Shown: positions 40,130 to 59,469 of the stretch, in pieces
Layout of the letters: the number at the start of each line of letters is the position of its first letter
Numbering within the stretch: the first letter of the stretch is position 1
Source: a phage
Length of the DNA: 64,000 nt
Direction: 5' to 3' (one strand)
Sequence record: PZ534512.1
Notes under the pieces: generated by a model
Databases searched by the model: none
What the model was told of the DNA's origin: nothing
The model's input: only the letters and a program-made list of their open reading frames with translations
Made by a program: the position numbers and the translations under genes

Positions 40130-40202
40130 TGGGAATTAGCCAAGTTGGTAAGGCACTGGATTTTGATTCCAGGATGCAAAGGTTCGAGTCCTTTATTCCC
40201 AG
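40130..40202 (+). tRNA. tRNA-Gln (anticodon TTG)
   Basis: Cloverleaf read by eye: acceptor TGGGAAT/ATTCCCA, anticodon loop TTTTGAT, T-arm GGTTCGAGTCC. Confidence 0.85.
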
Positions 40203-40203
40203 C

Positions 40204-40290
40204 GCGAGAATGGTCAAATTGGTAAAGGCACAGCACTTAAAATGCTGCGGAATGATTTCCTTGTGGGTTCGAGTCCCACTTCTCGTACCA
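40204..40290 (+). tRNA. tRNA-Leu (anticodon TAA), long variable arm, CCA encoded
   Basis: Acceptor GCGAGAA, anticodon loop CTTAAAA, T-arm GGTTCGAGTCC, 3' ACCA. Confidence 0.85.
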
Positions 40291-40296
40291 AAGTTT

Positions 40297-40368
<72 letters not shown>

Positions 40369-40380
40369 AAATTTAATTTA

Positions 40381-40454
40381 CTCCGTGTAGCTCAGTTTGG
40401 TAGAGCGTCTGCTTTGGGAGCAGAATGTCGTAGGTTCAAATCCTGCCACGGAGA
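40381..40454 (+). tRNA. tRNA-Pro (anticodon TGG)
   Basis: Acceptor CTCCGTG/CACGGAG, anticodon loop TTTGGGA, T-arm GGTTCAAATCC. Confidence 0.85.
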
Positions 40455-40456
40455 CT

Positions 40457-40543
40457 GGAGGCGTGGCAGAGTGGTTTAATGCACCGGTCTTGAAAACCGG
40501 CAGTCGCTCCGGCGACTCATAGGTTCAAATCCTATCGCCTCCG
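40457..40543 (+). tRNA. tRNA-Ser (anticodon TGA), long variable arm
   Basis: Acceptor GGAGGCG/CGCCTCC, anticodon loop CTTGAAA, T-arm GGTTCAAATCC. Confidence 0.85.
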
Positions 40544-40550
40544 TAATTTC

Positions 40551-40623
40551 GCTGATTTAGCTCAGTAGGTAGAGCAACTCACTTGTAATGAGGACGTCGG
40601 CGGTTCGATTCCGTCAATCAGCA
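40551..40623 (+). tRNA. tRNA-Thr (anticodon TGT)
   Basis: Acceptor GCTGATT/AATCAGC, anticodon loop CTTGTAA, T-arm GGTTCGATTCC. Confidence 0.85.
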
Positions 40624-40629
40624 TATCAA

Positions 40630-40701
40630 GGCCCTGTAGCTGGAAGGTTCAAGCAAGCGACTCATAATCGCCAGATGGTGGTTCAATTCCACCCAGGGCC
40701 A
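40630..40701 (+). tRNA. tRNA with CAT anticodon (T4 tRNA-Ile type reading AUA after modification, or Met)
   Basis: Acceptor GGCCCTG/CAGGGCC, anticodon loop CTCATAA, T-arm GGTTCAATTCC. Confidence 0.8.
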
Positions 40702-40742
40702 TATTTTGGGAACATAAATACTCTTAGAAATAGGAGATATTT

Positions 40743-41408
40743 ATGTTCCATTACACTTATAAAATAACAAATAAAATTAATAATAAAATCTATATAGGCG
40801 CTCATTCTACCGAAAATTTAGATGATGGATATATGGGTTCTGGTAAATTATTAAAAAGAGCCCAAGACAAGTATGGTATAGAAAATTTCTCTAAAGAAAT
40901 ATTAGAGTTCTTTGACGATAAAACCTCTATGTTTGAGTCAGAAAAGAATATTGTGACTGAAGAGTTTTTAAAGCGCCCTGACGTTTATAATTTGAAATTA
41001 GGTGGTGAAGGTGGTTGGGACCATTTAAACACTGAAGAATATTTGGATAAAAAGAAAGAAGCTTCCTTAAAAGGAGTTGCCGCTTTTAAAACCAGATTTG
41101 AGAACGACCCAGACCTTAAAGAAAAATATCGTAAAATGGGTTCAGAAAGGTTTAAACAGCTTTGGGATAATCCTAAGTATAGAGAGAAATTTTTAAATAC
41201 TAAATCTTTCTTGGGTAAGACCCATACTCCTGAAACTATTAATAAAATGAAAGAATCTCACGCCAGAAATAAACACCAACAGGGCGAAAAGAATTCCCAA
41301 TTTGGTATGATGTGGATTCATTCATTAGATGAAAAAGTTTCTAAACGTATTAAGAAAACTGACCCAATTCCAGAAGGATGGTTTAAAGGTCGAAAAATGA
41401 AATTTTAA
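40743..41408 (+). CDS. segB: GIY-YIG homing endonuclease SegB-like (221 aa)
   Basis: N-terminal GIY-YIG-type motifs (YTYKITNKINNKIYIGAH...YMGSG); 221 aa and location inside the tRNA cluster as for T4 segB. Confidence 0.85.
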   Translation: MFHYTYKITNKINNKIYIGAHSTENLDDGYMGSGKLLKRAQDKYGIENFSKEILEFFDDKTSMFESEKNIVTEEFLKRPDVYNLKLGGEGGWDHLNTEEYLDKKKEASLKGVAAFKTRFENDPDLKEKYRKMGSERFKQLWDNPKYREKFLNTKSFLGKTHTPETINKMKESHARNKHQQGEKNSQFGMMWIHSLDEKVSKRIKKTDPIPEGWFKGRKMKF

Positions 41409-41411
41409 CTA

Positions 41412-41488
<77 letters not shown>

Positions 41489-54136: not shown

Positions 54137-54159
54137 AGTCTCCTTCGGGAGACTTTTTT
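54137..54159 (+). terminator. intrinsic terminator
   Basis: AGTCTCC-TTCG-GGAGACT followed by TTTTTT. Confidence 0.8.
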
Positions 54160-54169
54160 CATTTTACCG

Positions 54170-54199
54170 GTTTACTTTTCATTTGAGCTGTGATACTAT
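54170..54199 (+). promoter_or_regulatory. T4-type early promoter
   Basis: GTTTAC (54170-54175), TACTAT (54194-54199), followed by the shared ACAACTATC leader. Confidence 0.7.
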
Positions 54200-54960: not shown

Positions 54961-54990
54961 GTTTACAAGTTGGCAAGGTTATGGTATAGT
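54961..54990 (+). promoter_or_regulatory. T4-type early promoter
   Basis: GTTTAC (54961-54966), 18-nt spacer, TATAGT (54985-54990). Confidence 0.65.
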
Positions 54991-55122
54991 AATCTTGTCA
55001 ACTGCCAAGGAGAAGAGAATGAAAATTTTGTTTGTTGTGTATGTGGTGATTCAATATAATTACCCAATGTTTACCTATAATCTGGTGAACAATATTATTG
55101 ATATGATTCAAAGGAGTATGTA

Positions 55123-55668
55123 ATGATGAGCGAGGCGAAACGATTAGTATTAGAAGTTAGTTCACTTTTTGGTGAATTGGCTATAGAAAAAGTAAATAAT
55201 ATGTATCGTTTGACACAAGAAGACGATATGCTATATTTTACGCCTAGTGAAATCATTCATTTAATCCAAATTGAAAATCCTTATACTGATAAAATTGTAA
55301 GCATTAATGATGAGCATAAAATTCATTTTTATTCTTCATGCCCAGGATTTAATATTGAAAGCGAGTCAATATGCTTATCAGTTATCCATTGGGATAGTTT
55401 TATAGATAAGATTAAATATTTTTATTATTCTAATGAAAGAAAACATAGTTTAAAATGGTTTAAAAATTGCAATGCTATTATTACTAACGCTTGCAATCAG
55501 AATGATGAAACTGTTTTAAACGTATCAAAATGTTATGAAGATGGAGATGTCTTAACTATTCGTCAAATTGATGATTTTCGAGCACATATTGTCACATTTA
55601 CCAAAGACGAAGCTATTGCGCTAAAGACTTATCTTGATTCTGTCATTCCAACTATGATTTCAAAGTGA
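55123..55668 (+). CDS. hypothetical protein, paralog A of tandem pair (181 aa)
   Basis: Shares PGFNIESES / EGFNIEDEN and a C-terminal ...AIALKTYLDSVIPTM motif with the next ORF. Confidence 0.5.
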   Translation: MMSEAKRLVLEVSSLFGELAIEKVNNMYRLTQEDDMLYFTPSEIIHLIQIENPYTDKIVSINDEHKIHFYSSCPGFNIESESICLSVIHWDSFIDKIKYFYYSNERKHSLKWFKNCNAIITNACNQNDETVLNVSKCYEDGDVLTIRQIDDFRAHIVTFTKDEAIALKTYLDSVIPTMISK

Positions 55669-55674
55669 GGAAAT

Positions 55675-56196
55675 ATGTTTATTTCAAGTGAAAGTGGTTT
55701 AATTCGTGTTGAATTTAAAAATGACATCTTTCTTATTCAAGGAGATGATACTATTAAAATGAGTTATGACGAAATCAAGAAAATTTGTCACATTCTTGGA
55801 AGTCGTGGAAAAGTAAATGCTGTTATTGACATCGGTGATTTATGGGTAACTCTTTATGAAGTATCCGAAGGATTTAACATTGAAGATGAAAACAACATCT
55901 TAGCTATTGATAAAAGAAGCGATTTGTTTGATGTGTTAAAAGTTTATGAACAGTCAAACGGTGGAAGAAAAGCTGCATTGATTTATCAAAAACCACATTC
56001 ATGCGGAACTGCTTCAATTATTTCAGATATTGAAGATGAAACTGATACTTATATGTGTGTTTTAAAAGCTGGTGGTGACCGTCATCCGGATTTTATTTCT
56101 ATTCGTCAAAACAATGGAGAAATTTCATTATCAAAATCAGAAGCTGAAGCTATGATTAAGTATTTAACAACTGTTACACCTTCAATGAAAGGATAA
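55675..56196 (+). CDS. hypothetical protein, paralog B of tandem pair (173 aa)
   Basis: Paralogous to 55123-55668 (C-terminal ...AEAMIKYLTTVTPSM). Confidence 0.5.
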   Translation: MFISSESGLIRVEFKNDIFLIQGDDTIKMSYDEIKKICHILGSRGKVNAVIDIGDLWVTLYEVSEGFNIEDENNILAIDKRSDLFDVLKVYEQSNGGRKAALIYQKPHSCGTASIISDIEDETDTYMCVLKAGGDRHPDFISIRQNNGEISLSKSEAEAMIKYLTTVTPSMKG

Positions 56197-56198
56197 TT

Positions 56199-56660
56199 AT
56201 GATTATTAATGAAAACTCTTGGCACTATAAATTATTCAAACTGTTTAACGACGAATGGAAACGACCTAAGACACTGTGTGCATACTTTTGGTCTATTGTT
56301 ATCCCTACATTTTTCGTTTCTTTTTTCGGATGTACTATACTCGCAGGTCTAACTATTATCTGTGCAGAAATCATGCAGAAATGGCTTATTTTTGGTAGTT
56401 TATGGACTCTTATTCCATCAGCATTTATACTTGCCATTTTGCTTGTTTTACTTATTATTGGTTCATTTGTTATTCCTGCACAACTGCATGAAAAATATAA
56501 AGATTATAAATGGAAAAAGGATTATGCTTTACATGTAGAAAATATTGATAGGGCGTATAAAGGTTTACCTCCTATTCAACCCAAGAAATCTATTATCGTC
56601 GAATTTTTAAAAGCACGTAAAGCTAAAGTATGTCCTGTTATTGAATATAAGGCTGAATGA
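56199..56660 (+). CDS. predicted integral membrane protein (153 aa)
   Basis: Three or four hydrophobic helices; ATGA overlap with the downstream nucleotidyltransferase gene. Confidence 0.5.
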   Translation: MIINENSWHYKLFKLFNDEWKRPKTLCAYFWSIVIPTFFVSFFGCTILAGLTIICAEIMQKWLIFGSLWTLIPSAFILAILLVLLIIGSFVIPAQLHEKYKDYKWKKDYALHVENIDRAYKGLPPIQPKKSIIVEFLKARKAKVCPVIEYKAE

Positions 56661-57670
56661 TGAAAACAGTAATGAAAAGCTATTTTGGTAGTCATCTTTA
56701 TGGAACTTCTACTCCAGAATCTGATGTAGATTTTAAAGAAATCTTTGTTCCTCCTGCTCGTGATATTCTTATCGGAAATGTTAAAGAGCATATGAGTAAA
56801 AACACTAACAACACATCATCTAAAAACACTAAAGATGATATTGACCATGAACTATACAGTCTTAAGTATTTCTTTAAATTAGCAGCAGATGGTGAAACTG
56901 TAGCATTGGATATGCTCCACACTCCACCGGAACTAGTAGTTAAATCTGATTTGCCTGATGTATGGAAGTTTATTCAAGACAATCGTTCTCGTTTTTATAC
57001 GACCAACATGAAATCCTACTTAGGATATGTTCGCAAGCAAGCTTCTAAATACGGTGTTAAAGGTTCTCGTTTGGCCGCATTACGCGATGTATTGAAAGTA
57101 GTTAATCAAATCCCCGATCAGTGGGTTGATTACCAAGAAGATGGTTCTATTAAGCAGCGTCGCACTAAAGTTGAAGATATTAAGCATCGTCTTCCAGAAA
57201 ACGAATTCTGTGAATGGGTGTTCCATAATCATGAGAAAACAGGTCCACAGACGTTTTACACAGTGTTGGGTCGTAAATATCAGACAACGCTTTCTCTTAT
57301 TGAGCTTAAGCAGTCACTGAACAAATTAGATGCTGAATATGGTGAACGTGCTCGTAAGGCCGAAGCCAACGAAGGCATTGACTGGAAAGCTCTGAGCCAT
57401 GCCTGTCGTGGTGGACTTCAACTATTGGAAATTTACAAAACTGGCGACTTGGTTTATCCACTTCAAGACGCTCCATTTATTCTCGACGTGAAGTTGGGTA
57501 AACATCCATTTAAAACAGTTCAAGAGTTTTTGGAAGATGTGGTCGATCAAGTAGAAGCAGCATCTACTGAAGCTTCTAAGAACGGTATGCAGCAAAAAGT
57601 AGACATGGGTTTCTGGGATGACTTCCTTGAGAAGGTCTATCTTGAAAACCACCGAAGTTATTATAAATGA
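56657..57670 (+). CDS. predicted Pol-beta-superfamily nucleotidyltransferase (337 aa)
   Basis: N-terminal G-S-x10-D-x-D motif (YFGSHLYGTSTPESDVDF) and downstream acidic hDh (ALDMLH); long helical C-terminal domain. Confidence 0.6.
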   Translation: MMKTVMKSYFGSHLYGTSTPESDVDFKEIFVPPARDILIGNVKEHMSKNTNNTSSKNTKDDIDHELYSLKYFFKLAADGETVALDMLHTPPELVVKSDLPDVWKFIQDNRSRFYTTNMKSYLGYVRKQASKYGVKGSRLAALRDVLKVVNQIPDQWVDYQEDGSIKQRRTKVEDIKHRLPENEFCEWVFHNHEKTGPQTFYTVLGRKYQTTLSLIELKQSLNKLDAEYGERARKAEANEGIDWKALSHACRGGLQLLEIYKTGDLVYPLQDAPFILDVKLGKHPFKTVQEFLEDVVDQVEAASTEASKNGMQQKVDMGFWDDFLEKVYLENHRSYYK

Positions 57671-57672
57671 TA

Positions 57673-57696
57673 GGGAGCCTTCGGGCTCCCTTTTTT
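57673..57696 (+). terminator. intrinsic terminator
   Basis: GGGAGCC-TTCG-GGCTCCC followed by TTTTTT. Confidence 0.8.
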
Positions 57697-57720: not shown

Positions 57721-57750
57721 GTTTACAAGCATAAAGCTTTATGGTACTAT
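57721..57750 (+). promoter_or_regulatory. T4-type early promoter (same cassette as at 42523)
   Basis: GTTTAC (57721-57726), TACTAT (57745-57750); shares AAAATTTTTCACAAAACGGTTTACA and GGTACTATACAACTATCAACT with the 42.5-kb promoter. Confidence 0.7.
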
Positions 57751-57784
57751 ACAACTATCAACTGATACAGATTTGGAGAATAAA

Positions 57785-58753
57785 ATGAAAACTGTAACTA
57801 TCAATAAGGGTATCTACTTCGGTAAAGAAATCTCTGGAACTTTTGAGCTCTTAGGCGAATGGTTCCCAGATAATGCTCCGGTAGATGCACAAGGAGATGG
57901 TAAAGTTTTTGTTGAAATTGACGGTAAGCGTCGCGGTGTTTGGGTTTACAAATCAGACATTTCATATGATGGTGTAAAAGTTGAAGAAGTTAAAGAATCA
58001 TATGAAGATATGAAAACCCGCATTAATAAAAGATTTAATGTTATGGGAATGATGACGAATGGTATTATTAACGGAAACATTCGTTCATTAATTATCTCTG
58101 GTGCGGCGGGTATTGGTAAAACGTATTCTTTAGATAAAGCTTTAAATAAAGCAAATGATATTGGATACATTGAATATAAAAGCATTAATGGTAAAATCTC
58201 TGGTATTGGTCTTTATGAACAGCTTTGGAATAATCGTGAAGAGAATTCTGTCCTTTTGATTGATGATGTGGATGTTTTCTCTGATATGGACATTCTTAAT
58301 CTTCTGAAAGCTGCTCTGGACACTGGAGAGACCCGTAAAGTCTGCTGGAGCACTGCGTCTTCTTACTTAGAAGAAAAAGGCATTGAGCGTGAGTTTGAAT
58401 TTAAAGGAACGATTGTTTTTATCACAAACGTTGACATTGACCGCGAATTAGACCGTGGTACTAAACTTGCTCCACATTTACAAGCATTAGTGTCCCGCTC
58501 AGTTTATTTGGATTTGGGTGTTCACACTAATGAAGAAATTATGGTCAGGGTTGAAGATGTTATTCTTTCAACTGACATGATGCAAAAGCGCGGTCTTTCT
58601 GATGAAGAAACTTATAAAGCATTATCATGGATGAAAGTCAATGTTAATCGTTTACGCAATGTTTCACTGCGTACTGCTCTTTATCTTGCTGACTTTATTA
58701 TGACAGACAAAAACGGTTGGGAAGAAATTGCTGAAACGGTATTATTAAAATGA
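57785..58753 (+). CDS. predicted P-loop/AAA-like ATPase (322 aa from ATG at 57785)
   Basis: Walker A GAAGIGKT and Walker B VLLIDDVD; ORF-track start 57773 is a TTG. Confidence 0.6.
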   Translation: MKTVTINKGIYFGKEISGTFELLGEWFPDNAPVDAQGDGKVFVEIDGKRRGVWVYKSDISYDGVKVEEVKESYEDMKTRINKRFNVMGMMTNGIINGNIRSLIISGAAGIGKTYSLDKALNKANDIGYIEYKSINGKISGIGLYEQLWNNREENSVLLIDDVDVFSDMDILNLLKAALDTGETRKVCWSTASSYLEEKGIEREFEFKGTIVFITNVDIDRELDRGTKLAPHLQALVSRSVYLDLGVHTNEEIMVRVEDVILSTDMMQKRGLSDEETYKALSWMKVNVNRLRNVSLRTALYLADFIMTDKNGWEEIAETVLLK

Positions 58754-59469
58754 AAAAATATTTTACTATCTATAAAACTGAAATATTAAATTTAAAGACA
58801 GGTATTAAGAAATACTATTATGGTCGACATATAACTAATAACATCAATGATTCGTATGTTGGTAGTGGAAATTATATAGAACGTGTAAAAGTGTCAAATG
58901 ACCACATATTATCAAAAACGGTTTTAGAAGTTTTTGATAATTATGATAAAATGGTACAAGCTGAAATATTATATATCATGGCAGGTAAATTGAAATATGG
59001 AAAAAACTGTGTTAACCTGTCATACGGGGGTGAAGGAGGAAAGGTTGCAGATGAAACTAGGATAAAATGCAAAAAGCATTCTATAAATTTATGGAAAAAT
59101 CCTAATCATATACAGCATATGAAGAAAAAGATGAAAGAGGTCACATCCACGCCGGAAGCTAAATTAAACACTTCAATAAAAACTTCGCAACGATATAAGG
59201 ACCCAGTTTTTGTTAGAAAAGTTAGTAATATTATTAAAAAGAAACTAAGCAATCCTGTAGTAAAAGAAAAGCATATTAATGGAATTAAAGCTGCAAAGCG
59301 TTCTCATTTAACTATATGGCAATATGAAGATGAATTATTCGAGCTTTGGAAAGAAACTAAATATGGATGGAGAAAATTTACAAAGGAAGCTATAAAACAC
59401 GGGTATCCAAATGAACCGTATCGTAGTATGGTATCAACCTTTCAGAAAAGACATTTAGAAGAATCCTAA
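58750..59469 (+). CDS. GIY-YIG-like Seg-family homing endonuclease (239 aa)
   Basis: N-terminal YYYGRH...YVGSG and LSYGGEGG motifs, parallel to segB (IYIGAH...YMGSG, LKLGGEGG); basic C-terminal DNA-binding-like region. Confidence 0.65.
   Translation: MKKYFTIYKTEILNLKTGIKKYYYGRHITNNINDSYVGSGNYIERVKVSNDHILSKTVLEVFDNYDKMVQAEILYIMAGKLKYGKNCVNLSYGGEGGKVADETRIKCKKHSINLWKNPNHIQHMKKKMKEVTSTPEAKLNTSIKTSQRYKDPVFVRKVSNIIKKKLSNPVVKEKHINGIKAAKRSHLTIWQYEDELFELWKETKYGWRKFTKEAIKHGYPNEPYRSMVSTFQKRHLEES

Follow-up and report, generated by a model that had tools for sequence, protein, structure and literature searches.

An early transcription unit of a T-even phage ends in nrdC.11, which encodes a predicted RlaP-family nucleotidyltransferase with a probable role in tRNA repair

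Positions 54,961 to 57,696 of a 64,000-nucleotide stretch of phage DNA (sequence record PZ534512.1; the whole stretch is referred to below as the window) carry a compact run of genes that ends in a gene for a nucleotidyltransferase. The locus raises two questions: what the nucleotidyltransferase does, and whether the genes in front of it form a single system with it. A sequence-only reading had matched the block to no T4 system and had proposed an undescribed signalling or anti-defence module. We identified the genes as those of T4 mobD.2, mobD.1 and nrdC.11, together with two genes that are replaced by mobD in T4. The block is the early transcription unit mobD.2-mobD.1-(mobD.1 paralogue)-(membrane protein)-nrdC.11 of a T-even phage (Tequatrovirus), and the operon is real. 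The explanation that we consider best overall, with a probability of roughly 0.6, is a T-even early unit in which nrdC.11 encodes an RlaP-family enzyme acting in tRNA repair, and in which the other genes are not obligate partners of that enzyme. The block was already known at the level of genes and families, and restoration of lost nucleotides as a mechanism has already been proposed in print.

Family membership of NrdC.11

The last gene of the unit is 97-100% identical to nrdC.11 of phages RB32, T6 and RB51. Its product matches the Pfam family RlaP (PF10127) over residues 7-135 with a score of 44.2 bits (cutoff 23; E 2.6e-11). The same profile scores above threshold in 42 of 42 diverse relatives (best E 2.2e-19), with almost no other family matched, and a precomputed PF10127 match is present in 120 of 120 close homologues among the matches listed. 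An exhaustive homologue search returned 3428 cluster representatives at E ≤ 1e-3 and 828 at E ≤ 1e-30, and most of these proteins are full length.

The Pol-beta-type nucleotidyltransferase motif noticed in the sequence-only reading is well conserved. In an alignment of the 42 relatives, G11-S12, D23-x-D25 and S22 show no variation, and D85 is conserved in at least 90%. The same alignment revealed a conserved C-terminal block, R231, K244, H248 and R251 within an invariant D-W-K-A-x-S-H-A-x-R. Profile alignment (hhalign) with 19 canonical bacterial RlaPs gave a probability of 93.5% (E 2.2e-7) for the nucleotidyltransferase domain, the GS...DxD...D signature of the NrdC.11 type aligning with GS...DYD...E of canonical RlaP. 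A K-x3-[H/Y]-A-x-R motif in the C-terminal halves is also in register between the two types, although without significant profile similarity. On this sequence evidence, NrdC.11 belongs, as a divergent member, to the RlaP family of Pol-beta nucleotidyltransferases, and it is the one gene product of the operon with a supported function.

Searches for other nucleotidyltransferase families were negative. At E ≤ 0.1, Pfam gave no match to CD-NTase, SMODS or OAS, nor to class II CCA-adding enzymes or poly(A) polymerases. The MntA profile scored 13.2 bits (cutoff 60) and aligned only with 18 residues of the GS motif, and NTP_transf_2 stayed below threshold (13.6 bits, cutoff 21). The Pfam scan detected no HEPN-like neighbour in the operon, and scans with NCBIfam and PADLOC models returned nothing for any of the five operon proteins.

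RNA-repair context of cellular homologues

We scanned one genome per prokaryotic species for relatives of NrdC.11, clustered the neighbouring open reading frames (ORFs) and annotated the recurrent ones. Full-length NrdC.11-like proteins occur in 80 bacterial or archaeal loci, with 31-54% identity over residues 2-330 or so, and several of these loci lie on chromosomal contigs of megabase size. A canonical RlaP of 250-290 amino acids is encoded in 22 of the 80 loci, usually immediately downstream of the NrdC.11-like gene; one such neighbour matches Pfam RlaP across the whole profile (1.9e-62). Genes for RtcB, RtcA, Pnkp, Hen1 or Ro60 lie within 6 kb in 17 of the 80. Two loci (L060 and L080) contain a Hen1-Pnkp-NrdC.11-like-RlaP operon, a third (L086) has Hen1-Pnkp-NrdC.11-like with no canonical RlaP detected, and a fourth (L044) has the order Ro60-RtcB-RtcA-NrdC.11-like-RlaP-Hen1. 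This operon context ties the NrdC.11 type itself to RNA repair, beyond canonical RlaP.

The two types recur as a tandem pair. An NrdC.11-like gene (about 320 codons) is followed directly by a canonical RlaP gene (about 260 codons), often with overlapping stop and start codons, in loci L015, L017, L029, L032, L034, L040, L042, L044, L060, L061, L066, L068, L075, L080, L082, L084 and L088. The pair is found inside or beside Pnkp/Hen1 or RtcB operons. The arrangement suggests that NrdC.11-like proteins and canonical RlaP have distinct, complementary roles in bacteria. Other recurrent neighbours (ABC ATPase, histidine kinase, RNase III, radical SAM, UDG-like proteins and helicases) were each found in few loci and were taken as local context.

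Proposed role in tRNA repair

The Pnkp-Rnl1 pathway of T4 is the classic case of viral repair of host-inflicted tRNA damage, in that instance by the anticodon nuclease PrrC. RloC-type nucleases are thought to defeat this pathway by removing the wobble nucleotide. Excision of that nucleotide by RloC is documented (PMC2610378, PMC3458546). The name RlaP refers to the association of the family with RNA ligase genes, and the role predicted for it was the replacement of nucleotides that damaged RNA has lost. In a 2025 preprint, two Pseudomonas RlaPs added one or two nucleoside monophosphates to RNA 3'-OH ends and favoured the 5' half of a cleaved-tRNA mimic; DNA and protein were not substrates, and the characterised enzymes showed little specificity for the nucleoside triphosphate. 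That preprint explicitly places T4 NrdC.11 in the RlaP family, in a separate similarity cluster (cluster 5), and proposes RlaP as an antidote to nucleotide-excising nucleases such as RloC. The 3'-OH of the RlaP product suits 5'-phosphate ligases. A polynucleotide kinase and an RNA ligase are encoded elsewhere in the genome of a close relative that has the same operon.

The most likely role of NrdC.11 is to replace nucleotides in tRNA that the host has damaged, so that the phage repair enzymes can then ligate it. In the early phase of infection, a host nucleotide-excising anticodon nuclease (RloC-like) would cut tRNA, or another RNA of translation, and remove a nucleotide. The phage polynucleotide kinase-phosphatase would heal the broken RNA ends, NrdC.11 would put back the missing nucleotide or nucleotides ahead of ligation, and the phage RNA ligase Rnl1, which requires a 3'-OH and a 5'-phosphate, would seal the break. 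The data presented here establish the identities of the genes, the family of NrdC.11 as judged by sequence, its catalytic motif, the layout of the operon, how the genes are distributed and the RNA-repair setting of the cellular homologues. We infer the RNA substrate of NrdC.11, its link to the phage Pnkp and Rnl1, and the nuclease that it would answer. If NrdC.11 does restore the wobble nucleotide, T-even phages would have a three-enzyme repair pathway that answers such "smart" nucleases.

Organization of the transcription unit

The features of the unit, all on the + strand, are as follows (coordinates are those of the window).

54961-54990, + strand: T4-type early promoter (GTTTACA, 17-nucleotide spacer, TG-n-TATAGT; 10 of 12 consensus positions)
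55019-55123, + strand: mobD.2-like ORF, 34 amino acids, with Shine-Dalgarno sequence AAGGAG; its stop codon TAA overlaps the next ATG by 1 nucleotide
55123-55668, + strand: y05I paralogue a, orthologue of T4 mobD.1, 181 amino acids, isoelectric point (pI) 5.1
55675-56196, + strand: y05I paralogue b, 173 amino acids, pI 4.8; T4 lacks it
56199-56660, + strand: small integral membrane protein, 153 amino acids, phrog_944; T4 lacks it
56657-57670, + strand: NrdC.11 orthologue, a predicted RlaP-family Pol-beta nucleotidyltransferase, 337 amino acids; a second in-frame ATG is at 56660
57672-57696, + strand: intrinsic terminator (8-bp stem with 6 GC pairs at 57672-57691, loop TTCG, T run)
57721-57750, + strand: the following early promoter, that of nrdC.10, taken as the downstream limit of the unit

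The sequence-only reading had described an operon bracketed by a single early promoter and a strong terminator. Both elements are present where it placed them: TTTACA and TATAGT with a 17-nucleotide spacer and an extended -10 TG lie at 54962-54990, and the site is an exact match to GTTTAC-N15-TGGTA. This motif, allowing at most one mismatch, occurs 13 times in the window, on the + strand only, against an expectation of 1.19; a count of at least 13 was reached in none of 100 shuffles. A motif search found no MotA-box or late promoters inside the block. In contrast to the earlier description, this is probably not the sole promoter of the block. A terminator at 54137-54154 is followed directly by another early promoter at 54170, which drives four small mobD.5-mobD.2a-like genes that run into the 54961 promoter. 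Because no convincing terminator was found between the 54170 promoter and 54961, read-through into the block is likely.

The four ORFs that had been listed are all present on the + strand, but the unit has five genes, the 34-codon mobD.2-like ORF at 55019-55123 having been missed. This ORF has phmmer matches to the syntenic ORFs of UFV13 (3e-17) and RB69 (1e-14), and T4 mobD.2 has the same length and position. Its product has a hydrophobic N terminus. The close packing of starts and stops was described correctly: the junctions between the four main ORFs measure +6 nucleotides, +2 nucleotides and a 4-nucleotide ATGA overlap, and a purine-rich, Shine-Dalgarno-like run precedes the start at each junction. 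The further claim, that such coupling implies stoichiometric co-expression, is weakly founded. In a close relative, the stretch around the block has 25 annotated genes; of their 24 junctions, 17 are overlaps or gaps of no more than 12 nucleotides, and the same holds for 14 of the 21 junctions outside the block. Because this spacing is generic in the region, it is weak evidence for stoichiometric co-expression, and after this count we do not take it as a sign of a stoichiometric complex. The GC content rises along the operon, from 29% in y05I_a through 31% in y05I_b and 32% in the membrane-protein gene to 39% in nrdC.11; the window average is 36%.

Many Tequatrovirus genomes share 96-98% identity with this region. 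The order in T4 is mobD.1, mobD (an HNH homing endonuclease gene), nrdC.11 and nrdC.10, with mobD in place of paralogue b and the membrane-protein gene. Annotation of these genes in public records carries two propagated errors: nrdC.11 is often mislabelled 'thioredoxin' or 'putative HNH homing endonuclease', and mobD.1 and mobD.4 are often mislabelled 'molybdopterin-guanine dinucleotide biosynthesis protein MobD'.

Downstream of the unit, the nrdC.10 orthologue (57721-58753, + strand) has its own early promoter and encodes a 322-residue P-loop ATPase (GAAGIGKT) with weak Pfam AAA_14 and nSTAND matches. This gene is found along with nrdC.11 in Tequatro-, Mosig- and Dhakavirus, as well as in phages of Klebsiella and Acinetobacter, and is absent from the bacterial NrdC.11-like loci. 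A seg-like homing endonuclease gene follows (58750-59469, + strand; phrog_314, 1.8e-30), its start overlapping the nrdC.10 stop by 4 nucleotides. Because nrdC.9 directly follows nrdC.10 in T4, this gene is a mobile insertion relative to T4.

Distribution of the genes

The sequence-only reading had proposed checking whether the four genes co-occur across T4-like genomes. They do so in part of the range of nrdC.11 only. Counted by tblastn over 50,697 phage records, nrdC.11 is present in 1514, from phages of Escherichia, Klebsiella, Aeromonas, Acinetobacter, Vibrio and other hosts, and the membrane-protein gene in 928. The y05I_a gene is found in 730 records, about half the nrdC.11 count, and in T-even-like enterobacterial phages only; y05I_b at 80% identity or more is found in 434, all T-even-like enterobacterial phages by host names. 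The full four-gene arrangement (at least 80% query coverage) is present in 429. Only Tequatrovirus has all four genes together, and the y05I proteins are confined to Tevenvirinae. The arrangement of the window phage is commoner than that of T4, which lacks two of the four genes.

The gene order also varies. RB69 (Mosigvirus) and Bp7 (Dhakavirus) have a three-gene form, with one y05I gene, the membrane-protein gene and the nucleotidyltransferase gene joined by the same ATGA overlap. One to five unrelated genes separate the membrane-protein gene from the nucleotidyltransferase gene in Klebsiella, Morganella and Acinetobacter phages, and Aeromonas phage 44RR2.8t, Vibrio phage KVP40 and Caulobacter phage Cr30 carry the nucleotidyltransferase gene with no y05I or membrane-protein homologue nearby. 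Homologues of the y05I or membrane proteins were found in none of the 80 cellular loci. The genes are thus not co-occurring or adjacent wherever NrdC.11 is found, and the block does not behave as a conserved multi-gene unit. We conclude that the four genes are mostly not one system, T4 doing without genes 2 and 3 and also tolerating laboratory deletion of the nrdC.11-mobD.3 block. The upstream genes are best described as lineage-restricted accessory passengers that share the transcript or, at most, as optional modulators, rather than obligate partners of the enzyme.

A stand-alone gene for a 73-residue y05I_C-like protein abuts the phrog_944 gene in Klebsiella phage phi1_146043 (locus L005, 3099-3814), 1.2 kb upstream of the nucleotidyltransferase gene. 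The y05I C-domain may have become linked to the membrane protein before there was a link to the nucleotidyltransferase.

The y05I and membrane proteins

The profile searches that the sequence-only reading had proposed, which gave RlaP for the nucleotidyltransferase, assigned genes 1 and 2 to T4_y05I_N/C and gene 3 to phrog_944. The scores for the Pfam families T4_y05I_N and T4_y05I_C (cutoffs 24.9 and 27 bits) are 129.5 and 74.7 bits for gene 1, which also matches phrog_1502, and 113.1 and 82.6 bits for gene 2. The two proteins of about 175 residues are paralogues, as had been supposed (29% identity, E 1e-10). The family is small, with 12 and 35 clusters at 90% identity, and literature searches on y05I and mobD.1 gave no functional study.

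An AlphaFold 2 (AF2) model of y05I built from 20 sequences has a predicted local distance difference test (pLDDT) score above 90 for N-domain residues 10-100 and a poor C-domain. Its secondary structure falls into three units, each with four or five strands and a helix, the layout of Pur-alpha, whose third unit dimerises. The Pfam label 'putative transcription factor' probably goes back to this Pur-alpha layout. Weak similarity was detected between repeat I and the y05I C-domain (hhalign P 1.9e-4, probability 47%). The N-domain model resembles the RNA- or single-stranded DNA-binding proteins Pur-alpha, Whirly and MRP1/2, at 5-14% identity and without sequence similarity, and may thus, as far as the model goes, have a PUR/Whirly-like fold. 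A Foldseek search with y05I gave no significant match in the PDB, and in a viral library it gave only the y05I family itself. Both y05I proteins are acidic (pI 4.8-5.1; N-domains 4.5-4.8), which is indirect evidence against binding of single-stranded DNA or RNA.

A 179-residue y05I protein from metagenomic contigs (P0131, 6 contigs) matches paralogue a over its N-terminal two-thirds and paralogue b over its C-terminal third. This chimera indicates recombination between tandem y05I copies, with loss of the intervening DNA.

The third gene encodes an integral membrane protein, as had been predicted, with strongly hydrophobic stretches across residues 25-98 (Kyte-Doolittle maximum 3.0) and a phrog_944 match of 4.6e-50. 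Its basic, cytoplasmic C-terminal tail ends in a K-x-K-V-C-P motif. An N-terminal N-S-W-H, a P-x-[ST]-L-C-x-Y-[FV]-[WR] motif and a C-terminal K-x-K-[VI]-C are conserved in homologues from RB69, Bp7 and Klebsiella, Morganella and Acinetobacter phages.

Discussion

Several observations weigh against an RlaP-type repair enzyme that has no obligate partners in its operon. The Pfam and hhalign similarity to canonical RlaP is limited to residues 5-135, about 130 N-terminal residues, and the C-terminal halves of the two types are not significantly similar (hhalign probability 0.2%). The AF2 model of the enzyme, from a shallow alignment of 30 sequences with 77-99% identity, has a pLDDT of 53, and below 50 in the nucleotidyltransferase domain. 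Sequence searches of the PDB with the protein and with a 42-sequence profile found no relevant structure and did not match the PfRlaP chain. Of the cellular loci, 63 of 80 contain none of the five repair genes that were sought, many of those contigs being short, and in the phage nrdC.11 has no adjacent ligase gene. Finally, the ATGA overlap between the membrane-protein and nucleotidyltransferase genes in Tequatrovirus, RB69 and Bp7 would be compatible with a functional link of some kind.

The genes could form one module in which the two PUR/Whirly-like y05I proteins, paired through their C-terminal repeat, bind a nucleic acid or a host factor, the membrane protein serves as anchor or regulator of the complex, and the nucleotidyltransferase modifies the bound target. 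The order y05I-membrane protein-nucleotidyltransferase, with its overlapping or abutting stops and starts, is kept in Tequatrovirus, RB69 and Bp7, and the full form in 429 records, the y05I_C-like gene beside the membrane gene in the Klebsiella phage, the modelled resemblance of the N-domain to nucleic-acid binders and the weak similarity between repeat I and the C-domain would all fit such a module. We nevertheless consider it unlikely. T4 retains mobD.1 and nrdC.11 although it has lost paralogue b and the membrane-protein gene to mobD, unrelated genes split the membrane-protein gene from the nucleotidyltransferase gene in Klebsiella, Morganella and Acinetobacter phages, and y05I is missing from half of the nrdC.11-carrying phages and from 80 of 80 cellular loci. 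The acidity of y05I would be unusual for a nucleic-acid binder, the tight spacing is generic in the region, and the accessory genes differ in GC content (29-32%) from the nucleotidyltransferase gene (39%). A narrower version has a slim chance of being correct: the y05I pair and the membrane protein of enterobacterial T-even phages might be a lineage-specific adaptor of NrdC.11, in which the y05I proteins form a Pur-alpha-like heterodimer joined through the third repeat and which captures cleaved tRNA or a host nuclease near the membrane and hands it over to the nucleotidyltransferase, or they might make up a separate anti-host module, as yet undescribed, with an acidic PUR/Whirly-like scaffold.

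Two other readings concern the enzyme itself. It might mature or repair the 3' ends of the phage's own tRNAs, adding all or part of CCA, instead of mending anticodon-loop damage. The window has eight T4-type tRNA genes (40130-41488, + strand), and CCA is not encoded in those for Gln, Gly, Pro, Ser and Thr, as judged by genomic 3' ends (those for Leu, Ile/Met(CAT) and Arg end in CCA), and addition of one or two nucleotides to RNA 3'-OH ends is what RlaP does. This role seems improbable to us, as NrdC.11 matches no CCA-adding enzyme family in Pfam, the characterised RlaPs show little nucleotide specificity and act on the 3' end of a 5' tRNA half in preference to the acceptor end, and the cellular homologues adjoin genes for ligase, kinase-phosphatase and Hen1, not tRNA genes. 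Moreover, T4 tRNAs without CCA depend on the host cca enzyme. Alternatively, as the sequence-only reading had suggested, the enzyme might make or modify a nucleotide signal, or nucleotidylate a host protein, to counter CBASS, Thoeris, Pycsar or retrons. A Pol-beta fold is compatible with many acceptors, nrdC.11 belongs to the early genes of a hyperplastic region with many anti-host functions, and T4 can lose the nrdC.11-mobD.3 block under laboratory conditions. We give this proposal very little credence: neither Pfam, NCBIfam nor PADLOC models matched it to CD-NTase, SMODS, OAS or MNT/AbiEii, its 42 relatives match RlaP and hardly any other family, the gene neighbourhoods in cellular genomes point to RNA repair, and the characterised RlaPs labelled neither proteins nor DNA.

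The RlaP-family repair role of NrdC.11 thus remains the reading that we prefer. For this role, the window adds context rather than discovery, namely a common T-even arrangement that was lost in T4. The tandem NrdC.11-like/RlaP pairs in bacterial repair operons and the tentative, model-based fold assignment of y05I are further additions, and the acidic, possibly PUR/Whirly-like y05I pair is a secondary lead.

Comparison with known systems

The closest known counterpart is NrdC.11 of T4 (NP_049709), an orthologue of equal length that likewise lies between mobD.x genes and nrdC.10. The difference lies upstream, where T4 has the HNH homing endonuclease gene mobD and the window phage has y05I paralogue b and the membrane-protein gene.

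With bacterial RlaP (Pseudomonas fluorescens and P. aeruginosa; rtcB-rlaP-rtcA operons), NrdC.11 shares the Pol-beta nucleotidyltransferase domain and the GS...DxD...D/E signature, and homologues of both types are embedded in RNA-repair operons. The NrdC.11 type is, however, about 70 residues longer, its C-terminal half carries its own invariant DWKAxSHAxR, and in bacteria it often stands beside canonical RlaP, not in its place.

The y05I proteins differ from Pur-alpha, Whirly and MRP1/MRP2 in their acidity, in identities of 5-14% and in the low confidence of the C-domain model. The T4 pair Pnkp and Rnl1, acting against PrrC, follows the logic that we propose here, that of a phage counter-measure to host tRNA cleavage in which NrdC.11 would take a part, although nrdC.11 lies about 80 kb from pseT and rnlA.

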